DNA of 64,000 bases from an uncultured Bacteroidia bacterium (GTDB taxonomy: Bacteria; Bacteroidota; Bacteroidia; NS11-12g; UBA9320): NCBI GenBank assembly GCA_943789165.1, contig CALSTB010000005.1:56398-120397 (forward strand). Reading direction: 5' to 3'. How positions within the stretch are numbered: position 1 is the first letter of the stretch; each line of letters starts with the position of its first letter. Positions 1 to 14,892 of this stretch are shown here, one piece after another. The notes beneath the pieces are model-generated. The model searched no databases and had not been told where the DNA came from. It was given only the letters and a program-made list of their open reading frames with translations. A program made the position numbers and the translations under genes.

Positions 1-2945
1 GTGGTATATACTCTGAAGACTCACCTACAATAACCAATTGCACCTTTTTCAATAACAAAGCAACTACCACTTCAAAAGGCGGTGGTGGTGTATATGCAAT
101 AAATGCAGGAACTACTACGGTATCAAATTGTATATTTTTTGGAAATAAAATAGGCTCATCTACGACTAATGTTGGTTCAGATATTAAAAACGGTACTGGT
201 CATACAACCACTGTAGACTACAGTATGGTACAACTTGCTAGCGGAAGTTATACCTCTGGAAACACCAATGCCCTCACATCTGCAACCAATATGGTCTATA
301 ACCAAGACCCATTATTCAGCGGTCATGGTGGTCCAGATGGAGTAGATAATGTATGGATGACGGAGGATGACGGACTCAGATTAAATAGTAATAGCCCTGC
401 AGTAGATGCGGGACTTAATAGTGCCATAAGTGGGTATTCTACAGATATTGTAGGTACTGCTCGTGTGGTGAATACTAACGTAAATATGGGAGCTTATGAG
501 GTTCTTTGTTCTGAAACGACTGAAACGATAACAGCAAATGTTTGTGATAGCTATACCTCTCCAAGTGGCAGGCATACCTGGTTTAGAACAGGAATATATA
601 AAGACACGATTCCAAACGCAGCAGGTTGCGATAGTATTCTAACAATAAACTTAACGGTAATTGCAACACCAATAGTTACTGTCAGCACGCTCGCTGGTAG
701 TTCTCAGGGCTATACAGATGGTACAGGGACATCGGCTCAGTTTAAATATCCTACTGGAGTAGCGGTCGATGGCGCTGGAAATGTGTATGTAGCGGATCAG
801 TTAAACCACCGCATTCGAAAAATAACTGCATCAGGTGTGGTCAGCACGCTCGCTGGTAGTTCTCAGGGCTATACAGATGGTACAGGGACATCGGCTAAGT
901 TTGACTATCCTATAGGAGTAGCGGTCGATGGCGATGGAAATGTGTATGTAGCGGATGGGTCAAACCACCGCATTCGAAAAATAACTACATCAGGTGTGGT
1001 CAGCACGCTCGCTGGTAGTACATATGGCTATACAGATGGTACAGGGACATCGGCTAAGTTTAACGGTCCTAGCGGAGTAGCGGTCGATGGCGCTGGAAAT
1101 GTGTATGTAGCGGATTACTTTAACCACCGCATTCGAAAAATAACTACATCAGGTGTGGTCAGCACGCTCGCTGGTAGTTCTCAGGGCTATACAGATGGTA
1201 CAGGGACATCGGCTAAGTTTGACTATCCTTATGGAGTAGCGGTCGATGGCGCTGGAAATGTGTATGTAGCGGATCAGAATAACCACCGCATTCGAAAAAT
1301 AACTGTATCAGGTGTGGTCAGCACGCTCGCTGGTAGTACAAATGGCTATACAGATGGTACAGGGACATCGGCTCAGTTTAAATATCCTACTGGAGTAGCG
1401 GTCGATGGCGCTGGAAATGTGTATGTAGCGGATGAGTCAAACCACCGCATTCGAAAAATAACTACATCAGGTGTGGTCAGCACGCTCGCTGGTAGTACAT
1501 CTGGCTATACAGATGGTACAGGGACATCGGCTCAGTTTAAATATCCTAGCGGAGTAGCGGTCGATGGCGCTGGAAATGTGTATGTAGCGGATATCAGTAA
1601 CCACAGCATTCGAAAAATAACGTTAAGTGCTGGTAGTGCTGAAACAACTGAAACGATAACAGCAAATGTATGTGATAGCTATACCTCTCCAAGTGGAAAA
1701 ACTTGGACAACAAGCAACACGTATTCAGATACGATTCCAAACACTGCGGGTTGTGATAGTGTTATCACGGTGAACCTTACGGTGAGATATAAAAGTTCCT
1801 TCTCGTTCGCAGAAACGGTATATGAAACCTTTACATCGCCAAGCGGAAAAACATGGACAAATTCAGGCACATATTTAGACACAATACCTAATGACGTTAA
1901 TTGTGACAGCATCATAACGGTCGATTTGACTGTAATCAACAAGTTATTTGTCGATACAGATGGTTCATCAGGAACAGGAAAATCATGGGGGACTTCAATG
2001 AAAACCCTAGATGACGCCATCAAAGTAGCTAATGCAACGGGCAATCATGCTGAAATATGGGTGCGTAAAGGAATGTATTATCCTGGCGGACAATCGAGCA
2101 GCAATCGAGATTCAGCGTTCCTAATTACCAATCCAAATGTTGAATTATTAGGAGGTTTTTCTGGAACAGAGACAGAGCCTGGTCAACGAAATCAAACGGC
2201 CAATCCAACCATATTGTGTGGAGATATCGGTACAACAAACGATTCCTCGGATAATGCATATCACGTATTGATTATTGCACCAAACGGATCAGACATCGGA
2301 CCTAATTTTAAACTAGATGGGTTAACCTTTAAAAACGGTAACGCTGACGGTAGCACTAAATATACGTATGGCAGTAGAGACGTTTACCAAACCGATGGGG
2401 GAGCAATAACGATTATGGGCAGTGGAACCACTGGTCAAGAGATTAGTCCAACGATTACCAATTGTCATTTTGAAGGAAATTATGGCGATTATGGCTCGAT
2501 TTACATACGCGTGCCTAATGGTAAGTCTTTTGCAACCATTAGCCATTGTACGTTTAAAAACAACCATTCAATTTATGGCGCTATCTTTAACGATGGTCAA
2601 GCAGGTGAAGTATCTCCAAACATTGTAAACTGTGCCTTTGATGGCAACACAAGTGCCACTTCGGGTGCAGCGATATACAACTATGGTTATGGAGGCAAAT
2701 GCTCTCCAACAATCACAAGTTGTGTGTTTAACAGCAACAGTGCTAGTTCAATGGGAGGAGCAATCTATAACACGGGTTATGGTGGAACATCCAATCCAGT
2801 GATCACAAACGCTACCTTCCATGCAAACGCAGCTGGTTCTCATGCAGGAGCGATGTATAGCTTTGGTAACAGCGGAACATGCCAACCTAAGGTGACCAAC
2901 TCTATCTTTTACAAAAACACAAAAGGTGGAGATGATGGACCATAA
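1..2945 (+). CDS. Giant T9SS-secreted adhesin-like protein, upstream part (5' end beyond window): Pmp-like right-handed beta-helix repeats, six NHL repeats, Cys-containing approx. 50-aa repeats
   Basis: Frame 3 is open from nt 3. Repeated NCTFxxN...GGAIY/GAAIYN motifs match polymorphic-membrane-protein-type beta-helix repeats. There are six YVAD..NHRIRKIT NHL repeats. A DPLF..DGxDNVW.TEDDGLRL...MGAYE motif occurs. The reading frame is interrupted at 2893-2945 and continues in the next ORF. Confidence 0.6.
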   Translation, partial: GIYSEDSPTITNCTFFNNKATTTSKGGGGVYAINAGTTTVSNCIFFGNKIGSSTTNVGSDIKNGTGHTTTVDYSMVQLASGSYTSGNTNALTSATNMVYNQDPLFSGHGGPDGVDNVWMTEDDGLRLNSNSPAVDAGLNSAISGYSTDIVGTARVVNTNVNMGAYEVLCSETTETITANVCDSYTSPSGRHTWFRTGIYKDTIPNAAGCDSILTINLTVIATPIVTVSTLAGSSQGYTDGTGTSAQFKYPTGVAVDGAGNVYVADQLNHRIRKITASGVVSTLAGSSQGYTDGTGTSAKFDYPIGVAVDGDGNVYVADGSNHRIRKITTSGVVSTLAGSTYGYTDGTGTSAKFNGPSGVAVDGAGNVYVADYFNHRIRKITTSGVVSTLAGSSQGYTDGTGTSAKFDYPYGVAVDGAGNVYVADQNNHRIRKITVSGVVSTLAGSTNGYTDGTGTSAQFKYPTGVAVDGAGNVYVADESNHRIRKITTSGVVSTLAGSTSGYTDGTGTSAQFKYPSGVAVDGAGNVYVADISNHSIRKITLSAGSAETTETITANVCDSYTSPSGKTWTTSNTYSDTIPNTAGCDSVITVNLTVRYKSSFSFAETVYETFTSPSGKTWTNSGTYLDTIPNDVNCDSIITVDLTVINKLFVDTDGSSGTGKSWGTSMKTLDDAIKVANATGNHAEIWVRKGMYYPGGQSSSNRDSAFLITNPNVELLGGFSGTETEPGQRNQTANPTILCGDIGTTNDSSDNAYHVLIIAPNGSDIGPNFKLDGLTFKNGNADGSTKYTYGSRDVYQTDGGAITIMGSGTTGQEISPTITNCHFEGNYGDYGSIYIRVPNGKSFATISHCTFKNNHSIYGAIFNDGQAGEVSPNIVNCAFDGNTSATSGAAIYNYGYGGKCSPTITSCVFNSNSASSMGGAIYNTGYGGTSNPVITNATFHANAAGSHAGAMYSFGNSGTCQPKVTNSIFYKNTKGGDDGP
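670..1625 (+). repeat. Six tandem 159-bp (53-aa) NHL-repeat units with near-identical DNA sequence
   Basis: The string gtcagcacgctcgctggtag recurs at 681, 840, 999, 1158, 1317 and 1476, a period of exactly 159 nt. Long blocks (gtagcggtcgatggcgctggaaatgtgtatgtagcggat, aaccaccgcattcgaaaaataact) are identical between units. Confidence 0.9.
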
Positions 2946-4410
2946 GTTTAGTGAGTTCTATAACTATGCAGCGTATCCATACATAAAAAATAGTTCGATG
3001 CAACGTGCAAGCTCAACATACACAGCAAGCACATTCAACAGCTTAAATAGTGGAACAAACAACATCTTCCAGACCAATCCAAACTTTGAGGCGATTGCCG
3101 ATGGCAATGGTGCGGATGATGTTTGGAGAACAGGAGATGATGGATTGAGATTATCTTCCTCAAGTACCAACTTGTTAAACGGTGGAACCAATACAGGTGC
3201 CCCAACTGCGGATATCTTAGGAAATCAGCGTATGGGAACAACCGACATGGGTGCTTACGAGTATGTCAACTGTGGCTTAAATGTTAAACTAGCTACTTCG
3301 GTTACCACTCATACAGCAACGCAAAGTGTTGTGGATGGTAATTTTGTATGCTACTGTAACAGCGACAATGAATTACTCTTGGCTCTTGACACCAATGGAA
3401 CTGGGGCGGTGATTACACCTAGTCAGGTAAAACTATACATTGGCAATCCATCAACCTTGAGTTACAACTCTGCTGGCGGTATGATAACCAACACGGCTGG
3501 TGGTGTGATACTAGAAAGACGTTGGGATGTGGAACCAACGACTCAACCAACTTCTCCTGTAACGGTTCGTTACTTCTACACCAACGACAACTACGGTGAC
3601 ATTGTAACGGCTATGGCTGGATTAACATCGCCTACAACCATTACTTCGCCAAGTCAACTACAGTTTTACAAGGTAACAGGCGGCTCATCGGCAACCTTCC
3701 CGAACCCACATGATACGGGAGTAACGGGTATTGTACTGACCAACGGAACAACAGCCAGCACAACAGTGTGGGTTAATGGAACACATGGTGTACAAGACCA
3801 TACAGCAGAATACCTAGTAAGCACGTTCTCCGGTGGTGGAGGCGGAGGCGGGGGTGGATCTAGCCCACTACCAGTGGAACTGATCCAGTTCGAAGCAAGC
3901 CCAGCAGCTAGTCATACAGCAGACCTTACATGGAAGACCGCATCAGAGCTAAACAACTCACATTTTGTAGTTGAACGTAGCTATGATGGTAGAGACTTCC
4001 AGGCAGCAGCAATTGTTCAAGGAAACGGGACAACACAAAACGTGATTACCTACAACCACAACGACAATACGATTGATCTAGCACAAAACACTGTGTTCTA
4101 TCGATTACGTCAGGTGGACTTTGATGGCACCACGGCTTACTCACCAGTAAGACGAGTAGACTTTGAAGGCAGCATCATACCAAACAGCGTAACGCTTTAT
4201 CCAAACCCAACAAAAGGAACGGTTACGGTTAGCTTTACAGACGATGAGGCTGAAAGTCATGCGATTAAAGTAATTGACAACCTCGGAAGAGAGCTGTACA
4301 AGCAAACCTTCGACGGACAAGCCATAGAGCTTGATTTGTCGAGCCAAGCAACGGGCATCTACTTTATCATTTTAGATTCTGGTGAATCCTTTAAAGTGAT
4401 TAAACAGTAG
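2926..4410 (+). CDS. Giant T9SS adhesin, downstream part: second DPLF..DDGLRL..MGAYEY module, poly-Gly linker, conserved pre-CTD approx. 100-aa domain, T9SS type-A C-terminal sorting domain
   Basis: It begins in a different frame 20 nt before the upstream ORF's stop. The C-terminus VTLYPNPTKGTVTVSF...GIYFIILDSGESFKVIKQ is a Por_Secre_tail (type A CTD). A G9 run sits at aa approx. 305. The LTWKTASELNNSHFVVERS...FYRLRQVDFDGTTAYSPV domain is shared with two other proteins in the window. Confidence 0.6.
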   Translation: MEMMDHKFSEFYNYAAYPYIKNSSMQRASSTYTASTFNSLNSGTNNIFQTNPNFEAIADGNGADDVWRTGDDGLRLSSSSTNLLNGGTNTGAPTADILGNQRMGTTDMGAYEYVNCGLNVKLATSVTTHTATQSVVDGNFVCYCNSDNELLLALDTNGTGAVITPSQVKLYIGNPSTLSYNSAGGMITNTAGGVILERRWDVEPTTQPTSPVTVRYFYTNDNYGDIVTAMAGLTSPTTITSPSQLQFYKVTGGSSATFPNPHDTGVTGIVLTNGTTASTTVWVNGTHGVQDHTAEYLVSTFSGGGGGGGGGSSPLPVELIQFEASPAASHTADLTWKTASELNNSHFVVERSYDGRDFQAAAIVQGNGTTQNVITYNHNDNTIDLAQNTVFYRLRQVDFDGTTAYSPVRRVDFEGSIIPNSVTLYPNPTKGTVTVSFTDDEAESHAIKVIDNLGRELYKQTFDGQAIELDLSSQATGIYFIILDSGESFKVIKQ

Positions 4411-4450
4411 TGAGAAAGTATCGTATTACTACACAAATACAATAAGAGAA

Positions 4451-4478
4451 GGCCATTCGTTTTACGGATGGCTTTTTT
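4451..4478 (+). terminator. Rho-independent terminator after the adhesin gene
   Basis: A 9-bp stem ggccattcg/cggatggct with two G.U pairs and loop tttta is followed by TTTTTT. Confidence 0.55.
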
Positions 4479-4619
4479 GTTGTTCAATTGATTTGAAAAT
4501 ATAAAAAGTGAAGTAAACAAGATATCGGGTTGGTGAAAGTATTTACGGATATAAGTTGGTTTAAGACCAGTAGCTAGTTACGAATACTAGTTTTATATAT
4601 TACTAACGCGTAATATTAT

Positions 4620-5591
4620 TTGTATATTCGCTTTATGGAGTTCAAGCCCCTTGAATCATATCTATCTGATCCTAGTCCTTACACAAGCCGTAGACTCGTG
4701 GAACAGTTGGGTGAGGAAAAGTTTACCATTAATGACATAGGCGTTAGTTCACGGGTGTTTACCCATTGGCGATCAAATGGGTTAATCCCTGAAATAGAGG
4801 ATGGCTCATGGGTAAAACTGAATGTGTTTCAATTTATCTGGGTACAGATAATTAAAGACTTGCGTGCGTTTAACTTTTCTTTAAAGCAGATTGTCAAAGT
4901 ACGCGCTTCGCTATTTGAGTCCTTCGAAGGGTTTGCTACGGCGGATTTGTTTGATAAAAAAGGAAAGATAACCAAGGTATTGCGAGCACAGCTTAAAAAG
5001 ATGTTCGACAATCACCAAGAGATAATTGAAGGCCTAGAAAGTGGTTTCGAGTCGGATTCAAATTCAATAAAAGATTTCCTTGAGGCTTTTCAAATCCCAT
5101 TGCTCCTATCACTTAGCTTGAACGTATTGTTCCGTGCAATGGATCACACGCTACTGATTAGGCCAGATGGTCGAGTTGATTATACTTCAGAAACGCAAGA
5201 CGAGACATTGGCCAATTACTTGTCCGAGCACGATGCGGAGTCCATCTTGGTGCTTCCACTCAAAAAGTACATTCTGGTGCTGGTATCGACAAAAAAACTA
5301 GAAGATAAAGTTGGTAATATGGCCCTGGTTACCCAAGTTGAAATGGAAGTTTTACAAGCCATGCGGCAGGGAACGCTATCCGAACTTAGAATAATTTTTG
5401 ACCCCAAAGACCAACACGCAGATTTGGTGTATACCTATAAAGGGGTTGTACCCGAAAATGAAATGAGTAAAGTTTTAGATCGTTTTCGGCATAAAAAACA
5501 CGTTCAATTGTCTATGAAAACCAATGACGGTAAAACGGTATCTTTCGAATACCAAGACCGAAAACGGGTCCATAAATTAAATGGAAATTAA
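4620..5591 (+). CDS. Hypothetical protein with N-terminal MerR/excisionase-like helix-turn-helix; unknown function, adjacent to iteron-like repeats and a serine recombinase
   Basis: TINDIGVSSRVFTHWRSNGLI resembles a MerR-type HTH; the rest has no recognisable family. The more likely start is the ATG at 4635 (MEFKPL). Confidence 0.5.
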   Translation: MYIRFMEFKPLESYLSDPSPYTSRRLVEQLGEEKFTINDIGVSSRVFTHWRSNGLIPEIEDGSWVKLNVFQFIWVQIIKDLRAFNFSLKQIVKVRASLFESFEGFATADLFDKKGKITKVLRAQLKKMFDNHQEIIEGLESGFESDSNSIKDFLEAFQIPLLLSLSLNVLFRAMDHTLLIRPDGRVDYTSETQDETLANYLSEHDAESILVLPLKKYILVLVSTKKLEDKVGNMALVTQVEMEVLQAMRQGTLSELRIIFDPKDQHADLVYTYKGVVPENEMSKVLDRFRHKKHVQLSMKTNDGKTVSFEYQDRKRVHKLNGN

Positions 5592-5690
5592 TTGATAATT
5601 AATTCAGATTAATTGATAATAAACTCGGATTAATTGATAATTAATTCAGATTAATTGATAATAAACTCGGATTAATTGATTTTTAAATGG
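5588..5690. repeat. Iteron-like array: five direct copies of TTAATTGATAA spaced approx. 21 bp, organised as 2.5 tandem copies of a 42-bp unit
   Basis: Copies start at 5588, 5608, 5630, 5651 and 5672 (the last is degenerate). The array is flanked by aaatggaaattaat at 5578 and 5684. Confidence 0.85.
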
Positions 5691-5926
5691 AAATTAATGG
5701 ACAAAAAGAGGTGTAGATGCAGTAATGACAAGGCATTGAAGAACTCAAGCCAATTAAATACGGGTTCATTAGAAACGGAAACACCGCTAATGGGCATACT
5801 CCAATTGAGTTATGTCAGAAAAGTCAAAACAAGGACTTACAATACAAGAATTAAAAACCTATAGCGGATTTGAAAAACTAAGTGAGAAGGAATTAGAACA
5901 AGCGCTTCGATTTATTGAGTTGATGA

Positions 5927-7543
5927 GTGAGGTGCTTATTGAAACATTTAAGTAAAAGAATAATGCAGCATGTAGATCAACAATTGGCAGTCTTTGCCAA
6001 AGGGCAAAAGAACAACAAAGGGAAGGCCATTACAGCGGTCATGTATACCCGTGTATCGACCAAGGAACAGGCCGATAACAATCAGAGTCTCTTTACGCAA
6101 GCAAAGCACATCAAGCAATTTGCAATGAACAATGATTTGCAGATAATAGGGGAATTTGGTGGGACTTATGAAAGCGCCAAGAGTGATGAACGGGTTCAGT
6201 TCAAACAAATGATTGCCTTTGTCAAAAGACATAAGGTAGATGCCATTGTGGTATACTCGATGGATCGCTTTTCAAGAAGTGGTCCCAATGCTATTTACAT
6301 TTCAGAACAACTCAGAAAGATAGGTACTGAGATTATATCTGTAACCCAACCTGTAGACGCCTCTACAGCTGCTGGGGAATTGCAACAGGGAATTTACTTT
6401 ATGTTCTCACAATATGAGAATCAGCAAAGGCGCTTAAAGTCCATGGCGGGCACCCGTGAAAAGCTATTACAAGGACATTGGGTTACCAAACCACCCTTAG
6501 GGTACAAGAAGATCACAGAAGGTGGACAAAAGAAAATAGTCATCACAAAAGAAGGTAGATTGCTGGCAGCAGCATTTAGAAGAAAGATTAAGTACAACTA
6601 CGAATTTACTGAAATTAGTAAGTGGCTGTCAACAAGAGGTCTAAAGGTGAGTCATAAAAGATTATCTGAGTTATGTAGAAACGTATTTTATTGCGGTTTC
6701 ATGGCCCATCAGGCATTAAATGGAGAGATTGTAAAGGGCAATCATGAAGGACTCATCACACGTAATGAGTTCTTGAAGCTGAATGGCATGCTTCAAATCA
6801 GACCTGCCAAAAAGCCAAAATCAAAAATGTTGGATCATCTACCCTTAAAGAGGCACATGCATTGCTCAAAGTGCAGCAAACCAATGACGGGTTACTTTGT
6901 GCGACCAAAGAAGTTATATTACTACAAGTGCAATACGAAAGGTTGTAAAGTCAATAGAAGTGCTAAGGTGTTAAACCGAAACTGGGAACAGACGCTTTCC
7001 AATCTTCAGATAGATGCAAAATACGTTACACCCATCCAAGAACAGCTCAAAAGAAAGCTCGAAAGCTTAAAAGAAGACTCTGGTGATGGGCTAAAACAGT
7101 ATCGCAGTAACAAAACAAAGGTTGAGAGGAAGATAGAGATGTTGGAAGAACGATTTGTAATAGGAGAAATTACCAAAGACTTATTTGATAAGTACGCTGC
7201 TAAATATAGAGAAGAATTGGTGGCAATATTAGAAGAAATCGACAAATGTGGAATTTCATTATCGAACCCTGATCAGGTAATCAAGCAGGCCACTGATTTG
7301 ATGTCTAAACTTCAGAAAACCTGGCAGTTATCAAAATCAACAGAAAGATCAAAGTTGCTTAAAGCGGTCTACCCAAGCGGAATTTGGCTTGATCCTGAAA
7401 ATAACAGTTATCGAACTTTTGGTTTGAACCCAGCGGTGCGCTGTATCCTAGATATAACGGGGAAATCCGTAGAAAAGGAAAAGCGGAATAGTGAAGATAA
7501 ACTCACATATTCCGCTTTGGTAGAGGGAATCAGAACGTTATAG
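5927..7543 (+). mobile_element. Large serine recombinase (resolvase/integrase family with recombinase domain and zinc ribbon)
   Basis: N-terminal catalytic motif VMYTRVSTKEQ...DRFSRS. The C-terminus carries CSKCSKPMTGYF...YYYKCNTKGC, a zinc ribbon typical of large serine recombinases, followed by a coiled-coil tail. Length is 538 aa. The true start may be an internal Met. Confidence 0.9.
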
Positions 7544-7581
7544 AACTTTTGTTGCAGAGGCGGAAAATTCTGACATGCCAT

Positions 7582-7836
7582 AGTTAATGCAACAGAACCA
7601 AGTTTACACATTCGGCACCAGAAGCATTTAACGAACTAATGAAACAAAACGAGCAATCGATCCGACCAAGTTTGGTGAGACCAACGTTTGATATTGGTTT
7701 GGGATATCGATTTACGTCACATCTGAGCGTACAAGCTCAGTTTCGAAAATCTTGGACAACCAAATCGGTGTTAATTGCTGACCCCAATAAGCTAAACACG
7801 TCTGGTGTTAAATTAGGTTTGATGTATCGGTTTTAA
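7582..7836 (+). pseudogene. 3' remnant of an outer-membrane beta-barrel protein gene (no start codon, C-terminal ...GLMYRF)
   Basis: The sequence alternates hydrophobic beta-strand residues and ends in a C-terminal Phe, typical of OMP beta-barrels. The frame is open only from the stop at approx. 7579 and the N-terminal part is absent. It sits immediately 3' of the serine recombinase. Confidence 0.4.
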
Positions 7837-7860
7837 TACCTGATACTCCTATTTCTTTGT

Positions 7861-7868
7861 TACTTTTG
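7861..7868 (+). promoter_or_regulatory. Bacteroidetes sigma-A -7 element TAnnTTTG (TACTTTTG) 17 bp upstream of the aldehyde dehydrogenase start
   Basis: Exact match to the Bacteroidetes -7 consensus at the expected distance from the ATG. The identical octamer recurs at 21727 and 55730. Confidence 0.35.
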
Positions 7869-7885
7869 ACCTGTAAAACAGCCCT

Positions 7886-9328
7886 ATGTTTCAGCTCAAA
7901 AACTATATCAACGGTGAGTTAGTACCACCTGCTTCTATTCAGTATATCGACAATTTCGAACCAGCTACTGGTAAAATATATGCGCAAATTCCAAGATCGG
8001 ATAAGGCAGATATTGATAAAGCCGTCGCATCTGCCAAAGCAGCGTTTCCAGCTTGGAGTAAAATGCGCACTGAAGAGCGAAGTGCCATCATTATGAAGTT
8101 GTCAGATCTAATTGAGGAGAATTTAGATCGATTGGCAGAAGCGGAAAGTCGAGACAATGGCAAACCTCTGTGGTTGGCTAAATCTGTAGATATTCCTAGA
8201 GCTCGTGATAATTTTGGTTTTTTTGGAACAGCCATCAAACACTTTGCAAGTGAAAGTCATCGAACGGGTGAAGGCTTAATCAATTTTACAACAAGAACAC
8301 CCATCGGAGTGGCGGGTTGTGTTTCCCCATGGAATTTGCCCTTGTATTTGTTTAGTTGGAAGGTGGCTCCAGCATTGGCTGCAGGCAATACCGTCGTCGC
8401 CAAACCAAGTGAAGTGACACCTATGACGGCTTATTTGTTGTCGGAGTTGTGTATCGAAGCAGGTTTTCCAAAGGGCGTTTTTAACATCGTACATGGACTC
8501 GGCGCAGAAGCAGGTAACGCGATTGTCGAACATCCTGATGTGCCGATTATTTCCTTTACTGGAGGAACATCTACGGGTGCTCACATCGCACGAACAGCAG
8601 CACCGATGTTTAAGAAATTGAGCTTGGAACTGGGCGGAAAAAACCCAAACATCATTTTTGATGACTGCGATTTTGACAAAGCATTAAAAACGACATTGAA
8701 TTCATCATTTGCCAATCAAGGTCAAATCTGTTTGTGTGGATCGAGAATTTATATCCAACGAGGAATCTATGAAAAATTCCGTGATGCCTTTGTTGACAAA
8801 GTATCCAAGTTTAAAGTGGGCAACCCCATGGCTGATGATAGCCGTATGGGCGCCATCGTTTCTGAACAACACTTCGAAAAAGTAAAAAGCTATATCGCCC
8901 TAGCGAAAGAAGAAGGTGGGACGATTTTGACGGGTGGAGAGGCAGTTCAGCTGGATGGAGAATTTGCCGAGGGTTGGTACTTAAGACCTACTATTATTGA
9001 AGGACTGGATGAGAATTGTCGCACCAATCAAGAAGAGATCTTCGGACCTGTGGTGACGATCCAACCGTTTGATACGGAAGAAGAAGCCTTGGCTTTAGCG
9101 AACTCAACTGGCTATGGTTTGGCCTCAACTATTTGGACTCAGGACATATCAAAAGCACACCGAATGGCTGATACAATCAAAGCCGGCATCGTTTGGGTGA
9201 ATTGTTGGTTGGTCCGTGATTTGCGAACTCCATTTGGGGGCATGAAAAACTCTGGCGTCGGGCGTGAAGGCGGCTGGGAAGCATTGAAGTTTTTTACCGA
9301 AGCGAAGAATATTTGCATCAAGTATTAA
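7886..9328 (+). CDS. NAD(P)-dependent aldehyde dehydrogenase
   Basis: ALDH hallmarks are present: ELGGKNP, catalytic Cys in FANQGQICLCGSRIY, a GxGxxG-like FTGGTSTG, and a length of 480 aa. Confidence 0.9.
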   Translation: MFQLKNYINGELVPPASIQYIDNFEPATGKIYAQIPRSDKADIDKAVASAKAAFPAWSKMRTEERSAIIMKLSDLIEENLDRLAEAESRDNGKPLWLAKSVDIPRARDNFGFFGTAIKHFASESHRTGEGLINFTTRTPIGVAGCVSPWNLPLYLFSWKVAPALAAGNTVVAKPSEVTPMTAYLLSELCIEAGFPKGVFNIVHGLGAEAGNAIVEHPDVPIISFTGGTSTGAHIARTAAPMFKKLSLELGGKNPNIIFDDCDFDKALKTTLNSSFANQGQICLCGSRIYIQRGIYEKFRDAFVDKVSKFKVGNPMADDSRMGAIVSEQHFEKVKSYIALAKEEGGTILTGGEAVQLDGEFAEGWYLRPTIIEGLDENCRTNQEEIFGPVVTIQPFDTEEEALALANSTGYGLASTIWTQDISKAHRMADTIKAGIVWVNCWLVRDLRTPFGGMKNSGVGREGGWEALKFFTEAKNICIKY

Positions 9329-9392
9329 TAGTCGATTGACATTTGACAACTGAGAGGCTGTGCAACCCTAAATAGTGTGGATCAGACATTTT

Positions 9393-9422
9393 CAATTATC
9401 AAATATCAATTATCAATTGTTC
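9393..9422. repeat. Solo TTGATAW heptamer array (4 units) in the ALDH-DUF4290 intergenic region
   Basis: The + strand reads ttcaattatcaaatatcaattatcaattg; its reverse complement is caattgataattgatatttgataattgaa. The same motif is found at 27443 and 27845. Confidence 0.7.
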
Positions 9423-9478
9423 GTCGTTCATTGTAAATCGTACATTGTTAATTGCCCCACTCCCCTTAAATTCGCAAG

Positions 9479-10144
9479 ATGGAACACAACATGGCGTATA
9501 ATACGCAAGCAGAACCAATGGCAATCTCTGAATATGGCCGATCGGTTCAGGAAATGGTAGAACACATTTGCACAATTCCAGACAGAATAAAACGCAACGA
9601 ACTGGCTCGTACAATGATTCAGATTATGATTAACCTGAATCCCGCTGTCAAAGAGTTGGAAGATTACGAACATAAATTATGGGACCACTTATTCATCATT
9701 TCGGATTTCGAACTAGATGTGGACGGTCCGTTTGAAAAGCCAAGTAGAGAAGCAGTTGAGAAAAAACCTGAGCAGATTCCATATAAGGATGAGTTAATCA
9801 AGTTTAGATTTTACGGCAGAAACCTACAAACCATGGTGGAACAAGCAGCCGAAATGGAAGACCCAGAAATCAAAGAAGCGTTTATCAATTACATCGCTTC
9901 CTTTATGGTGAATTCATCGCGCAACTGGAATGACGAGAATCTTGACAAAGCAACTGTTATTGAGCACTTAAGAACCTTATCAAAAGGGACTTTGAACCTT
10001 ACTGAAGACGATTTGCAAATACACATTGAAGCAAACAGAACAAGGTCCAAAAACTTCAAATCAAACAGCAAACAACGCGGTAACAAGAAGTACGGTCAGA
10101 ACAGAAATCAAAACAGAAATAGAAACCAAAAGCGTAAGTATTAA
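9479..10144 (+). CDS. DUF4290 family protein with basic C-terminal tail
   Basis: A conserved Bacteroidetes protein that characteristically sits immediately upstream of murA. The C-terminus is NRNQNRNRNQKRKY. Confidence 0.55.
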   Translation: MEHNMAYNTQAEPMAISEYGRSVQEMVEHICTIPDRIKRNELARTMIQIMINLNPAVKELEDYEHKLWDHLFIISDFELDVDGPFEKPSREAVEKKPEQIPYKDELIKFRFYGRNLQTMVEQAAEMEDPEIKEAFINYIASFMVNSSRNWNDENLDKATVIEHLRTLSKGTLNLTEDDLQIHIEANRTRSKNFKSNSKQRGNKKYGQNRNQNRNRNQKRKY

Positions 10145-11451
10145 TGGGTACGTTTAAAATTACCGGGGGACATAAACTAAAAGGGGAAATCATACCGCAA
10201 GGAGCAAAGAACGAGGCACTACAGGTGTTGTCGGCCGTTTTGCTGACTCCCGAAGAAGTTATTTTAGAAAACATACCAGCCATTCGCGATGTCAATAAAC
10301 TCATTGACTTGCTAAAGGGTCTTGGCGTAAAAGTGAAGCAACTTAATTCTGAAGATTATTCGTTTAAGGCGGATGAAATCGACCTAGACTACCTAGACTC
10401 AGTTGATTTCAGAAATAAAGCAAAAAGTATTCGCGGTTCGGTTATGATTATCGGTCCGTTATTGGCTCGTTTCGGCAAAGGATATATTCCTAGTCCGGGC
10501 GGCGATAAAATTGGCAGACGAAGATTGGATACCCACTTCATTGGGTTTGAAAGCTTAGGGGCCGATTTTGAATTTCTAAGAGACGAGAACTTCTACCAAA
10601 TAAAAGCGGAGAAATTAGTGGGTGCTGACATGCTTTTACATGAAGCCTCAGTGACAGGAACAGCCAATATTGTCATGGGCGCAACTATGGCAGAAGGCAT
10701 TACCACCATTTACAACGCAGCATGTGAACCTTATGTACAGCAGTTATGTAAAATGCTGAATGCAATGGGCGCCAAAATATCTGGCGTTGGCTCCAATCTC
10801 TTGACCATAGAAGGTGTTAAATCATTGGGTGGATGTACTCATCGATTACTTCCTGACATGATTGAGGTGGGCAGTTTTATTGCTTTAGCGACCATCACCA
10901 ATTCTGACATTACCATCAAAGACGTCAACATTAAAGAACTTGGAATTATCCCTGAAACCTTTAGACGTTTGGGTGTGAATTTCGATGTGGTAGGTGACGA
11001 TATACGGGTTCACGACAACGAAACCTATACGATTGAAAGCTTCATCGACGGTTCGATGATGACGATTGCTGACGCACCATGGCCAGGACTAACACCAGAT
11101 TTGCTGAGTGTTATTTTGGTAATGTGCACACAAGCAAACGGCAATGTATTGATACATCAAAAGATGTTTGAAAGTCGGTTGTTTTTTGTCGATAGTTTGA
11201 TAGACATGGGCGCGCAAATCATCCTATGTGATCCACACCGAGCAACGGTTATGGGACTAAATCGTAGAGTGAATTTAAAAGGCATACAGATGACATCGCC
11301 TGATATTCGAGCAGGTGTGTCTTTGTTGATTGCTGCCATGAGTGCCGAAGGAGTGAGTACGATTCACAACATCGAACAGATCGACCGAGGGTATCAAAAC
11401 ATCGAAGGTCGTTTGAACGCCATTGGAGCGAAGATTGAACGCGTTGCCTAA
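10144..11451 (+). CDS. murA: UDP-N-acetylglucosamine 1-carboxyvinyltransferase MurA (Asp in place of the active-site Cys)
   Basis: The N-terminus KITGGHKLKGEIIPQGAKNEALQ and a length of 435 aa match MurA. The active-site loop reads PSPGGDKIGRRRLD, with D121 where E. coli has C115. Confidence 0.95.
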   Translation: MGTFKITGGHKLKGEIIPQGAKNEALQVLSAVLLTPEEVILENIPAIRDVNKLIDLLKGLGVKVKQLNSEDYSFKADEIDLDYLDSVDFRNKAKSIRGSVMIIGPLLARFGKGYIPSPGGDKIGRRRLDTHFIGFESLGADFEFLRDENFYQIKAEKLVGADMLLHEASVTGTANIVMGATMAEGITTIYNAACEPYVQQLCKMLNAMGAKISGVGSNLLTIEGVKSLGGCTHRLLPDMIEVGSFIALATITNSDITIKDVNIKELGIIPETFRRLGVNFDVVGDDIRVHDNETYTIESFIDGSMMTIADAPWPGLTPDLLSVILVMCTQANGNVLIHQKMFESRLFFVDSLIDMGAQIILCDPHRATVMGLNRRVNLKGIQMTSPDIRAGVSLLIAAMSAEGVSTIHNIEQIDRGYQNIEGRLNAIGAKIERVA

Positions 11452-11918
11452 TGCGTTTTTGGTTTGTTTTATTGTTAGCCGTATCGACGGTTAGTCTTGC
11501 ACCCAAAACAGACAACGATCCATTTGACTATAGCAGTTTTAAAGCGTATTACGAATTGAATGATTCTGTTCAATCTAACCTGAAAGGGAAAACGGTTTTA
11601 ATTCAATTTTGGGCTACTTGGTGTCTGCCATGTCGGGTTAAAAACGGTGAATTAAACCAAACCTATTCAGAATTCGGCAACGACCATTTCGAAATCATCA
11701 GCGTGGCCTTAGATACCGATTCAGCTGCTTGGAAAAAAGCAATCAAAAACGACAGAATTCAGTGGTCTACTCACGTAATGGACACCAATAAGTGGAACAG
11801 TCCTTTTTTGAAAAAAGCCAAAATTTATTATTTGCCCAACAACATTTTAGTGGATAGTACTGGCACAGTGATTGGACGAGAATTGTCTATCGACGATCTT
11901 GAAAAAGCCCTTAAATAG
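11451..11918 (+). CDS. TlpA-like thiol:disulfide oxidoreductase (thioredoxin fold, secreted)
   Basis: Signal peptide, then FWATWCLPCRVK (a CxxC motif). Confidence 0.8.
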   Translation: MRFWFVLLLAVSTVSLAPKTDNDPFDYSSFKAYYELNDSVQSNLKGKTVLIQFWATWCLPCRVKNGELNQTYSEFGNDHFEIISVALDTDSAAWKKAIKNDRIQWSTHVMDTNKWNSPFLKKAKIYYLPNNILVDSTGTVIGRELSIDDLEKALK

Positions 11919-12485
11919 ATTGCTTAAAATCCGACTTTAACACAGAGTAAACAGCCATGTCCATAAACTTCCCTTTAAAATAAATACGGTCTTTAAAGTG
12001 GGCTTCTTTTGTAAATCCCATACATTCAAGCAGGTGGATGGCGCCTCTATTCTCAGGAGAAAGCTTGGCTTCAATACTGTGTAGCTCTAATTGTTCAAAA
12101 CCAAATTGGACGATGGTTTGAGCAGCTTCTAGGGCGATGTGTTTGCCCCAATACGAAGTGGCAAGTTCTCCGCCTAGTTCAGCTCTTAGGTTTGGATAAT
12201 CAATTTGGTTAAATCCACAAGATCCAATGATGGTATTGTGTTCGCGCAGCAAACCAGCCCAACCAATGCCTTTTTTAGCAGCAAACGTGTCATTGGTCTT
12301 TTGAACCAAAGTTTCCGCGTCACTAGCCGATAACATGGAATCTCGTGCAATAAATTGGTTGACTGCTTGGTTTGATCGCATGGCAAAAATCGCCTCTGCA
12401 TCGCCAGGTAATATGTTTCTTAACGTTAAGCGTTTCGTTTTTAGAATCGGAAACGAGTTGAAGACTGAATCGTTGACTTTCATGA
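11911..12485 (-). CDS. GNAT family N-acetyltransferase (RimJ/RimL-like)
   Basis: ILKTKRLTLRNILPGDAEAIFAMRSN...GSCGFN...HSIEAKLSPENRGAIHLLECMGF. The start was taken at the internal Met (MKVNDSV); the ORF itself extends to 12552. Confidence 0.75.
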
Positions 12486-12663
12486 CAGCAAGATATTGTG
12501 CGAAAGTTAAGGCAATTAACTGACAGGCGACCACTAGAAACGCGTAAAACATGTTGAATTAAGGTGTCAATATGGCACGGTTCTTCTAATTCCTTTAAAC
12601 ATTGGCACGCTGGCCCGCTTGGCAAACTTATTGTAACCTGAAGTTTGATTAATCATTTTTGAA

Positions 12664-13203
12664 ATGGCTAAGAAAAAAAAGGAAGAAAAAGCAAAGGAAG
12701 AAGCAGTTGTTGACCAAGTTGACGGTCAGGCAGAAGAAACAAACGAGGAGCAGTCGAAGCCAGTAAACTGGGAAGAAAAAGCAGCGGAGTTAAACGACAA
12801 ATACCTACGGTTATATTCAGAGTTCGACAATTTCAGAAGACGTACCCAAAAGGAGCGCGCTGAATTAATTAAGTCGGCGGGGAAAGACATCTTATCAGAC
12901 TTGTTGCCAGTGGTGGACGATTTTGACAGGACTATGGATGCCATGGACAAGACGGAAGACGTAAAGGCGTTTACAGAAGGCGTTAAACTGGTTCAACAAA
13001 AATTCTTAAACGTGTTGCAAAAGCAAGGCATGGCTCATTTCGAAACGAAGGGAGAAGCCTTTGATCCAGAATTGCACGAAGCAATAACGAAGATACCTGC
13101 ACCAAGCGACGACTTGAAGGGCAAAGTGGTTGACGTGATTGAAAAGGGCTATATGCTCAACGAAAAAGTACTTCGCTACGCAAAAGTGGTGGTAGGAGAA
13201 TAA
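12664..13203 (+). CDS. grpE: Nucleotide exchange factor GrpE
   Basis: GrpE family sequence directly upstream of dnaJ. Confidence 0.95.
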
Positions 13204-13207
13204 GAAC

Positions 13208-14341
13208 ATGGCAAAAAGAGACTTTTACGAAATTCTAGGTGTATCTAAATCGGCAACAGACGCTGAGTTAAAAAAGGCGTATCGCAAGTTGGCGATTAAG
13301 TTTCACCCTGACAAAAATCCAGACAACAAGGAAGCTGAAGAGAAGTTTAAAGAAGCTGCTGAAGCCTACGAAATCTTAAGCAATCCAGACAAGCGAGCAA
13401 GATATGACCGTTTTGGTCATCAAGGTCTTGGAGGCGCTGCTGGCGGTCAAGGTGGATTTGGCGGTGGTATGTCAATGGACGACATTTTTAGCCAATTCGG
13501 CGACATCTTTGGTGGCGGCGGAGGAGGTGGAAGTCCTTTTGAAAGTTTCTTTGGCGGAGGTCGGAGTAGAAGTCGTCAAGCCATTGGCAGCAACATTCGT
13601 ATCAAACTTAAACTGAGTTTAGAAGAGATAACGAATGGCGTTGAAAAGAAAATAAAACATACCAAGAAGGTTGTAGCGCCAGGGGTAAAGTTCAATACCT
13701 GTAGCACGTGTCAAGGTCGCGGTCAGGTGACCCAAGTGACCAATACCTTTTTAGGTCAAATGCAAAGCACCACATCGTGTCCGGCTTGTGGCGGTAGTGG
13801 TAAAACCATCGGTACGCGCCCTCCAGGTGCAGACCACCAAGGATTGATTACCGAAGAAGTAACTACGACGTTAAACATCCCAGCGGGTGTTGAAGACGGT
13901 ATGCAGTTGTCGGTAAACGGAAAAGGAAACGAGATACCAGGTGGCATTCCAGGTGATTTAATCGTTTTAGTTGAAGAAAAAGACCACGACGATTTAAAGC
14001 GTGAAGGAAATAACATTATTTACAACCTATATATCAGTTTTCCAACTGCCGCGTTAGGCGCAGAAGTAGAAGTGCCAACTGTTTCAGGCCGTGTAAGAAT
14101 TAAAATTGAACCTGGCACACAAGCTGGGAAGATATTGAGGTTGCGAAATAAAGGAGTGCCTGATTTAAATGGTAGAGGTAGGGGAGATCAGTTGATCCAA
14201 ATCAACGTGTGGACACCTGCAAAACTAACATCTGAAGAAAAAGCAATTCTAAAGAAACTAGAAGAATCTGGGAACTTTAAACCTGATCCGTCGAAAAGCG
14301 AAAAAGGCTTTTTTGATAGAATGAGAGAATACTTCAATTAA
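13208..14341 (+). CDS. dnaJ: Molecular chaperone DnaJ (reduced zinc-finger region with only two CxxCxGxG motifs)
   Basis: J-domain with HPD (KFHPDKNP), a Gly/Phe-rich region, CSTCQGRG and CPACGGSG, and C-terminal domains. Length is 377 aa. Confidence 0.95.
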
Positions 14342-14343
14342 TC

Positions 14344-14892
14344 ATGTCGTTTATCCGAAAACACTGGTCGAACCTACTGTTTGCTGTGTTGGTCTTGTTA
14401 TTGATAGTCCCACAAACGGGTAAACCGATTAAAATATATCTACACCAATTACTTGCGTTTAGTCCATCCATTAAGGAGGAAAGTAAACGGACCAAGATTG
14501 AGTCTTACGACTGGGTGCTTGTCGATTCGCACGGACAAAAAATTGATTTCAATTCTTTTAAAGGCAAAAAGATTGTGGTTAATTTTTGGGCGACTTGGTG
14601 TCCACCTTGCATTGCCGAAATGTCAAGCTTTCAACAATTGTATGATGAGTTTAATGAAGACGTCGTGTTTTTGTTTGTCACCAACGACGATGAAGAAACG
14701 GTGAAACATTTCCTCACTCAAAGAAAATTACACCTACCTGTGTATCACGAAGTAACAAGTCCATTTCCAGAGTTTGAAGGGAACAATTTACCAACTACTT
14801 TTATCGTGAACGAAAATCAAGAAATCGTAGTAAAGAAAAAAGGTTCTGCGGATTGGTATTCTGAAGAGGTTAGGGATTTGTTGCGGGAATAG
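14344..14892 (+). CDS. TlpA-like thiol:disulfide oxidoreductase (membrane-anchored thioredoxin)
   Basis: N-terminal TM segment, then FWATWCPPCIAEM. Confidence 0.8.
   Translation: MSFIRKHWSNLLFAVLVLLLIVPQTGKPIKIYLHQLLAFSPSIKEESKRTKIESYDWVLVDSHGQKIDFNSFKGKKIVVNFWATWCPPCIAEMSSFQQLYDEFNEDVVFLFVTNDDEETVKHFLTQRKLHLPVYHEVTSPFPEFEGNNLPTTFIVNENQEIVVKKKGSADWYSEEVRDLLRE

Follow-up and report, generated by a model that had tools for sequence, protein, structure and literature searches.

Highly repetitive β-propellers occur in all propeller lineages and have been read as the products of repeated single-blade amplification, WRAP of Nostoc being an example (Pereira & Lupas 2022, PMC9218822); the main text of that paper does not contain the terms "hypervariable", "gene conversion", "recombination" or "NHL". 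In fungi, the WD40 repeats of het-d/het-e undergo concerted evolution over about ten paralogues, and in each repeat four positions on the surface used for interaction are under positive selection (Paoletti, Saupe & Clave 2007, PMC1805685). Leucine-rich repeat (LRR) surface proteins of Flavobacterium psychrophilum bear a type IX secretion system (T9SS) signal, and one side of these proteins is where their hypervariable residues lie (Altae-Tran et al. 2020, PMC10392669). Within the literature searched, no earlier description of a hypervariable NHL/T9SS propeller was found. Here, we focus on a 64,000-nt stretch of DNA from an uncultured Bacteroidia bacterium (contig CALSTB010000005.1, positions 56,398 to 120,397; hereafter the window), near the start of which a gene contains six tandem units of 159 nt. 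These units are the six blades of one NHL β-propeller in a large multidomain Bacteroidia surface protein, and the array is an invariant DNA scaffold that carries hypervariable positions, not a uniformly young repeat. The scaffold of this six-bladed propeller has probably been homogenised by recombination, and its hypervariable face diversified by short conversion tracts.

Tandem Repeats Finder (TRF) reports a single array at 681–1621, with a period of 159 nt, 5.9 copies, 91% matches, no indels and a score of 1526. The units are in frame with the open reading frame (ORF) at 225–2945, start at 681, 840, 999, 1158, 1317 and 1476, comprise 53 codons each and together span 681–1634; their consensus is VSTLAGSxxGYTDGTGTSA(Q/K)FxxPxGVAVDGAGNVYVADxxNHRIRKITxSGV. 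The Pfam NHL family (PF01436) matches six stretches of the translation with 166.8 bits (cut-off 20; E=2e-50), and TEN_NHL scores 128.6 bits. The 159-nt (53-aa) period and the NHL identity given in the original prediction are therefore borne out by TRF and Pfam, and the array that it placed at 670–1625 is real, although both ends were about 10 nt off. The first five units listed below are defined by TRF, their common frame, Pfam and an AlphaFold2 (AF2) model.

681–839, plus strand: NHL unit (blade 1)
840–998, plus strand: NHL unit (blade 2)
999–1157, plus strand: NHL unit (blade 3)
1158–1316, plus strand: NHL unit (blade 4)
1317–1475, plus strand: NHL unit (blade 5)
1476–1634, plus strand: NHL unit (blade 6), whose last four codons pass into the linker (LSAG)

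Across the six window units, 129 of the 159 nucleotide columns are invariant, with invariant runs of 30, 22, 21, 19 and 16 nt, and exact matches between pairs of units reach 46–90 nt. Pairwise nucleotide identity is 90–96% among units 1–5 and 83–88% for unit 6, which departs from the others only at the run-in to the linker (its last four codons); in most cassettes of the relatives the terminal blade likewise ends in ITLSAG, with a minority ending in ITFCSE or IGQATC. With one exception, an Ala-to-Asp change at codon 32 in unit 2, variation in units 1–5 is confined to codons 8, 9, 20, 22, 23, 25, 40, 41 and 50; many of the variable codons differ at two or three nucleotides (CAG, GGG, TAC, GAG and ATC at codon 40, for example). 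The approximately 43 remaining scaffold codons show no synonymous difference at all among these five units. The window array is thus a highly repetitive β-propeller in the sense that its blades are near-identical, synonymous sites included. Its variable positions fall into the following patches.

702–707 in unit 1, recurring every +159 nt, plus strand: hypervariable patch A (unit codons 8–9), with multi-nucleotide changes
Unit nt 58–60, 64–69 and 73–75 (codons 20, 22–23 and 25) and unit nt 118–123 (codons 40–41), plus strand: the other hypervariable patches, as seen in the window units
Unit nt 148–150 (codon 50), plus strand: a less variable patch, also from the window units

NHL-array proteins numbered in the thousands in a protein search, and the close matches (79–99% identity) have the same modules as the window protein. 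Nine array-bearing loci were compared at the nucleotide level, namely the window, four metagenome contigs (L001–L004) and four loci (L005–L007 and L009) from a closed 3.07-Mb metagenome-assembled genome (MAG) of an uncultured Bacteroidia bacterium (OX044357.1), from which the array-less loci L010 and L011 were also taken. The family is represented in this closed MAG by at least seven genes, spread over six sites of the chromosome, with at least 66 blades. A 17-nt blade anchor occurs six times in the window, 18 times in each of L001, L002, L004, L005, L006 and L007, and 12 times in each of L003 and L009; four paralogues without a propeller lack it. Only after each sixth blade are anchors separated by a long gap, and all 23 arrays in the nine loci consist of exactly six units, of 159 or 162 nt. 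The arrays of L007 show several spacings of 160 or 161 nt, which represent frameshifts or assembly errors. The unit number is fixed at six in all of these relatives, and the need for six blades to close the predicted ring would be the obvious constraint. The original prediction had expected the 159-bp unit to vary in copy number, and the surface protein in length, by slipped-strand or RecA-dependent events, and had itself named six copies in related strains as the counter-evidence; the relatives keep six copies despite exact matches of 46–90 nt between units, and length variation is refuted on those terms. No copy-number polymorphism of the unit, such as defines a contingency locus, was found among strains or paralogues, nor does unit number vary between alleles as it does in HNWD-type genes; whole cassettes alone vary.

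The same patch positions are variable across 98 distinct blades from at least seven genes, within and between which the scaffold is homogenised. Nucleotide diversity (π) among these blades is 1.3% in the scaffold (1.6% at third positions) versus 37% at the hypervariable codons, and pN/pS, as a crude Nei–Gojobori (NG86) estimate, is 1.5–1.8 at 11 hypervariable codons versus 0.55–0.72 at scaffold codons. Tyr, Ser, Thr, Asn and Gln predominate among the hypervariable residues. That the DNA is conserved beyond what protein function requires, as had been proposed, is upheld both by the lack of synonymous scaffold differences in units 1–5 and by a scaffold pS of 0.011.

The location of the variable residues was derived from an AF2 model built with a 21-sequence alignment of propeller-length segments, which superseded an earlier single-sequence run of the linker, propeller and linker together (429 aa; pLDDT 43). 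The model has a pLDDT of 95.6 and a pTM of 0.93 and comprises 24 strands (6 × 4) in a closed fold. Foldseek matches it to six-bladed NHL propellers with a probability of 1.00, including the teneurin-like protein 9ifo (TM 0.88), with further matches to SOQ1, NHLRC2, Thin, TRIM71 and Pizza6. The best sequence matches in the PDB are the designed, perfectly symmetric Pizza6 proteins (E=1e-52), which fits with a natural propeller that is nearly as symmetric. In unit numbering, the predicted strands are A (24–29), B (35–39), C (44–48) and D (53 plus 1–5). Positions 8, 9, 20, 22, 23 and 25 thereby occupy the D–A loop and the start of strand A, and positions 40 and 41 the B–C turn; since the A-entry loop and the B–C turn share a face in a four-strand meander, with the A–B and C–D loops opposite, the hypervariable positions are predicted to lie on one face. 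The opposite face would, by topology, present the invariant DGAGN loop together with position 50, which varies only weakly. By the same topology, the approximately eight hypervariable codons per blade all fall on one face of the propeller, and diversity, as read from the sequences, is seated in this putative binding face and not in repeat number. We infer that the propeller may serve as a secreted, cell-surface-attached binding module with diversified specificity.

Comparison of closely related strains indicates how the patches may move. Over 23.5 kb, L001 and L005 share 99.77% identity, and the identity between L003 and L009 is 99.7–99.97%; blades make up 8–12% of the compared length and contain 19 of the 54 differences in the first pair and 17 of the 47 in the second. 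These differences are clustered multi-nucleotide replacements, including 3-nt indels, at codons 7–13, 21–26, 40–44 and 51. Most of the larger replaced tracts are found verbatim in other blades, some of them in the same genome: one 45-nt tract is common to blade 6 of another paralogue, and another tract matches a blade of the same genome. The patches A, B and C have 24, 65 and 42 DNA haplotypes, respectively, which are combined almost at random. Furthermore, the window array is 7.5–7.9% divergent from its syntenic counterparts in L001 and L005, versus 1.1–1.2% for the rest of the 7-kb block, and 68–69 of the 72–75 array differences fall in patch windows. The probable source of this pattern is gene conversion between blades in short tracts, the products of which come under selection.

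A comparable pattern is seen outside the immediate family. Six unrelated NHL-array proteins of other lineages (P0044, P0110, P0092, P0103, P0097 and P0016) each have their own blade consensus but share variable positions at approximately 9, 22–23, 25 and 40–41. Concerted evolution predicts just such a pairing of lineage-specific scaffolds with common variable positions, which suggests a widespread class. As a separate observation, L016, from a Verrucomicrobiota MAG, contains at 3722–5100 NHL units mostly of 165 nt (162–174), with a long gap after the sixth unit; the first 17 nt of these units match the Bacteroidia blade anchor within three mismatches, a similar organisation in another phylum.

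The propeller is embedded in a modular gene. The architecture of the family consists of a β-helix-like region (choice-of-anchor Q), a Cys-linker, the NHL propeller, further Cys-linkers and a second β-helix-like region, followed by a region of about 420 residues with a poly-Gly spacer and then by the T9SS sorting domain. In the window, these parts are arranged as follows.

3–506, plus strand: start of the gene, 5'-truncated because it runs off the window; right-handed β-helix-like, "choice-of-anchor Q"
507–680, plus strand: pre-propeller Cys-linker (SETTETITANVCDSYTSPSGRHTWFRTGIYKDTIPNAAGCDSILTINLTVIATPIVT), which precedes every propeller in the relatives
511–568, plus strand: left copy of a 58-nt direct repeat, identical at 56 of 58 positions to the right copy at 1640–1697
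1635–1940, plus strand: two post-propeller Cys-linkers (…ETTETITANVCDSYTSPSGKTWTT…CDSVITVNLTV; …FTSPSGKTWTNSGTYLDTIPNDVNCDSIITVDLTV), recognised from the sequence and from relatives
1941–2942, plus strand: second β-helix-like (PMP-like) region, with a weak Chlam_PMP match and conserved in relatives
2926–4410, plus strand: +1-frame ORF lying downstream, corresponding in relatives to the C-terminal portion of one continuous protein
2931–2941, plus strand: +1 frameshift site GATGATGGACC, where relatives have GATGTGGACC or GATGATGACC, both in frame

The start of the gene matches NCBIfam choice_anch_Q at aa 126–167, with a weak DUF5123 match. Every propeller is flanked by modules of about 50 aa with two conserved Cys residues (…TANVCDSYTSPSG…TW…DTIPN.AGCDS.IT.NLTV), located in the window at 507–680, 1635–1793 and 1794–1940; in relatives these modules also stand in tandem, with up to five in P0002, and no Pfam or NCBIfam match was obtained for them. 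The 58-nt direct repeats bracket a cassette of 1128 nt made up of linker plus propeller, and genes of the family carry 0, 1, 2 or 3 propeller cassettes. Window positions 1–568 match gene A of L001, which lacks a propeller, at 98.2% identity and, at the protein level, L011 at 99.4%. Gene A aligns to window positions 1–568 and 1644–4531 with no propeller between them, and window positions 508–7523 are 97.9% identical to the 3' part of the three-propeller gene B of L001. The Cys-linker modules appear to be the recombination joints at which whole cassettes are gained or lost. The C-terminal 490 aa of all seven closed-MAG genes are 94–99.8% identical to the window protein (≥99.4% in six of them), and such high identity implies that homogenisation reaches beyond the blades.

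The repeat-bearing ORF ends at a TAA codon at 2943–2945, and the overlapping +1-frame ORF encodes a T9SS type A sorting domain at approximately nt 4195–4395 (Por_Secre_tail, E=9e-13, at aa 424–490; TIGR04183). The proposed location of the array inside a T9SS adhesin hence calls for qualification: the sorting domain belongs to the same gene in the relatives but is encoded by a separate ORF in the window, and a role as an adhesin is putative. The reading frame is unbroken at this site in 9 of 12 related gene copies, and the relatives P0002, P0003, P0058 and P0081 read through it as KGGD(V/D)DHKFSEF. The GATGATGGACC allele occurs in three assemblies (the window, gene B of L001 and L004) and, from its sequence, resembles a hybrid between the in-frame alleles GATGTGGACC and GATGATGACC; either a genuine mutation shared by these assemblies or an artefact of the consensus may account for it. 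In the C-terminal region, nine consecutive Gly codons at 3833–3859, considered as a slippery homopolymer, were rejected because they are mixed GGN codons. At the other end of the protein, the relative P0031 begins with MKSFYLARLTAVLFSIICFSFSNTVAQ, which is signal-peptide-like in appearance.

Taken together, we consider it probable that the family evolves by homogenisation and patch exchange. Homologous recombination between blades and between paralogues (at least seven genes and 66 blades in one closed genome) would homogenise the family, and short conversion tracts would carry single hypervariable patches from blade to blade, generating new combinations. Selection would retain diversity on the ligand-binding face and purge arrays that lack six blades, and larger events between the repeated Cys-linker modules would add or delete whole 1.1-kb propeller cassettes (0–3 per gene). 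Concerted evolution, already suggested in the original prediction, is the best reading of the scaffold conservation in view of the 98-blade diversity, the patches that differ between paired strains, the reuse of patches and the unrelated arrays.

Several considerations weigh against this account. The relatives are all metagenome assemblies, several of them with indel errors (unit spacings of 160, 161 and 164 nt), and, the evidence being assemblies, consensus building or polishing may have mixed reads from paralogues in some of the cases where patches seem to be swapped between strains. The pN/pS values are uncorrected NG86 proportions on recombining, saturated codons and not the output of a formal site model, and the face assignment derives from the strand topology of the model rather than from its coordinates. 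The sorting domain is out of frame in the window, so this copy may be a pseudogene. Finally, repeated re-amplification from single blades, the model of Pereira & Lupas, could also yield identical scaffolds.

That last process, taken as a full explanation, would be recent amplification without ongoing exchange, each propeller arising from a single blade and then changing by point mutation under positive selection. Repeated independent amplification is documented in all propeller lineages (PMC9218822), and the scaffold identity within the window has the look of a very young amplification. However, the scaffold DNA is common to 98 blades in at least seven paralogues and several strains, without propeller-specific scaffold substitutions, and the only synonymous variant that is common (ACG/ACC at codon 3) is spread over different propellers. 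Point mutation also fits poorly with hypervariable codons that differ by 2–3 nt and by codon indels while about 39 scaffold codons are identical, and with near-identical strains that differ by whole patches present elsewhere in the blade pool. We therefore regard this explanation as unlikely.

Assembly artefact, by which the unit number, the patch mosaics or both would stem from collapse, expansion or consensus mixing, is more improbable still. Six-unit arrays recur in nine loci from independent assemblies, including the closed 3.07-Mb MAG, the window array is perfectly in frame, and patch differences keep codon boundaries, with indels of 3 nt. On the other side stand the indel errors inside arrays of related contigs, the hybrid-looking +1 frameshift allele in three assemblies, and the fact that the window gene joins the 5' sequence of gene A to the 3' sequence of gene B at a repeated linker. 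The blades can all be told apart by their patches, so that reads of more than about 200 nt suffice to place them. An artefact is unlikely for the six-unit organisation, and possible for individual patches, the A/B junction and the frameshift.

There is very little to recommend a contingency locus, in which the number of 159-bp units would be changed by slipped-strand mispairing or unequal RecA-dependent crossing-over. The exact matches of 46–90 nt between units would suffice for homologous recombination, and the number of whole cassettes does differ between genes; yet 23 of 23 arrays have six units, the number with which the predicted propeller closes, and length steps are only those of a whole propeller plus linker. 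Writing of the variable codons by a diversity-generating retroelement (DGR), or by an invertase or shufflon driven by the serine recombinase encoded 3 kb downstream, can be dismissed as extremely improbable despite the sharp localisation of the variation and the proximity of that gene, since for a DGR none of the ten ORFs of 150 aa or more that were checked at 4620–14892 encodes a reverse transcriptase, the window has no extra template-like unit, and substitutions hit all bases and codon positions rather than adenine-templated sites alone, while for inversion none of the loci has a blade anchor on its opposite strand and the recombinase, a large integrase-type enzyme encoded at a tRNA-end junction, is missing from four paralogues with the same variation.

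Downstream of the propeller gene, the window contains the following elements.

4620–5591, plus strand: 323-aa ORF (orf323), found with the recombinase in all syntenic loci
5587–5680, no strand assigned: 21/42-bp AT-rich tandem repeat, ATTAATTGATAATWAAYTCRG in 4.5 copies, between orf323 and the recombinase
5927–7543, plus strand: large serine recombinase (Pfam Resolvase and Recombinase)

The product of orf323 has no Pfam match and is 98–100% identical in L001, L002, L003, L005, L008 and L009. The 42-bp (2 × 21-bp) AT-rich repeat is perfect, lies directly after the orf323 stop codon and may be a protein-binding array. Homology to six differently flanked loci ends at the same base, approximately 7523, about 20 nt before the recombinase stop codon (…CTTTGGTAG; …TATTCCGCTTTGGTAG). 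This junction adjoins the 3' ends of minus-strand tRNA genes, namely tRNA-Glu in L002 (18106–18180) and tRNA-Met in L008 (6191–6267), and is accompanied by tRNA-like remnants only in the window (7500–7545), L001/L005 and L003/L009; the candidate target of the recombinase module is a tRNA 3' end, TGGTAG…GAATCGAAC. Judging from these junctions, the block of propeller gene, orf323 and recombinase looks like a mobile tRNA-end-targeting unit, with the adhesin-like gene as its possible cargo. Towards the left side of this putative mobile block, the paralogues differ in their 5' parts, and the window begins within the gene. Ordinary chromosomal genes follow from 7886, encoding aldehyde dehydrogenase, an EPSP-synthase-family enzyme, GrpE and DnaJ.

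A broader proposal, which we offer tentatively and consider doubtful as a whole, extends homogenisation and patch exchange to combinatorial receptor diversification: at least 66 interchangeable NHL blades would share an invariant scaffold that keeps them competent for recombination, short-tract conversion of three to four patches per blade would keep rewriting the binding face of T9SS surface propellers, and the genes would spread with the tRNA-targeting serine-recombinase module, as a general class across phyla. Were this to hold, the system would be a prokaryotic analogue of the diversification of fungal NLRs or lamprey VLRs and an undescribed class of variable bacterial surface binders.

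The narrower account of homogenisation and patch exchange would, if true, have consequences of its own. The propellers would be natural counterparts of engineered binder scaffolds, with about 48 variable residues, rich in Tyr, Ser, Thr and Asn, on one face of a rigid propeller of six-fold symmetry, and recombination among many blades as the source of their diversity. They would represent rapidly evolving surface recognition proteins of uncultured Bacteroidia and candidates for roles in adhesion or in arms races with phages or grazers. In bacteria, the family would also allow the coexistence of concerted evolution with diversifying selection inside one repeat to be tested, and would indicate that a fold-closure constraint can suppress the copy-number instability expected of long perfect repeats. 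In practice, caution is called for with metagenomes, in which genes of this kind readily suffer mis-assembly or frameshifts.

Among known systems, the highly repetitive propellers resemble the present family in being bacterial, in having blades that are near-identical at the nucleotide level and in the frequency of frame-disrupted copies and uncertain assemblies; here, however, the scaffold is common to a multigene pool, and the variation lies on one face and moves as patches. Pizza6 and the NHL sensor domain of M. tuberculosis PknD are likewise six-fold symmetric NHL propellers with identical blades, but Pizza is artificial, with blades of 42 aa, whereas the natural blades described here are 53–54 aa long and have a D–A loop longer by 11 residues, which holds most of the hypervariable positions. 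In Borrelia VlsE, Treponema TprK and Neisseria pilE/pilS, segmental gene conversion copies short tracts from a cassette pool into an expressed surface gene. Unlike those systems, the loci compared here show no sign of a dedicated array of silent cassettes, of an expression site or of high-frequency switching, and the donors appear to be blades of expressed paralogues.

The closest mechanistic analogue is the fungal het-d/het-e system. The fungal HNWD/NLR WD40 repeats show concerted evolution within and between paralogues, a few diversifying surface positions and exchange of repeats as the supply of diversity, although they belong to eukaryotic intracellular NLRs and are highly variable in repeat number, whereas the repeats here are NHL blades, fixed at six, in a protein predicted to be secreted by the T9SS. 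To our knowledge, repeat-induced point mutation (RIP), which has been invoked for the fungal system, is absent from bacteria. The closest ecological and secretory analogue is the LRR surface proteins of F. psychrophilum, which differ in forming an open solenoid of 2–14 repeats, in contrast to a closed six-bladed propeller that can be present as multiple cassettes per protein.

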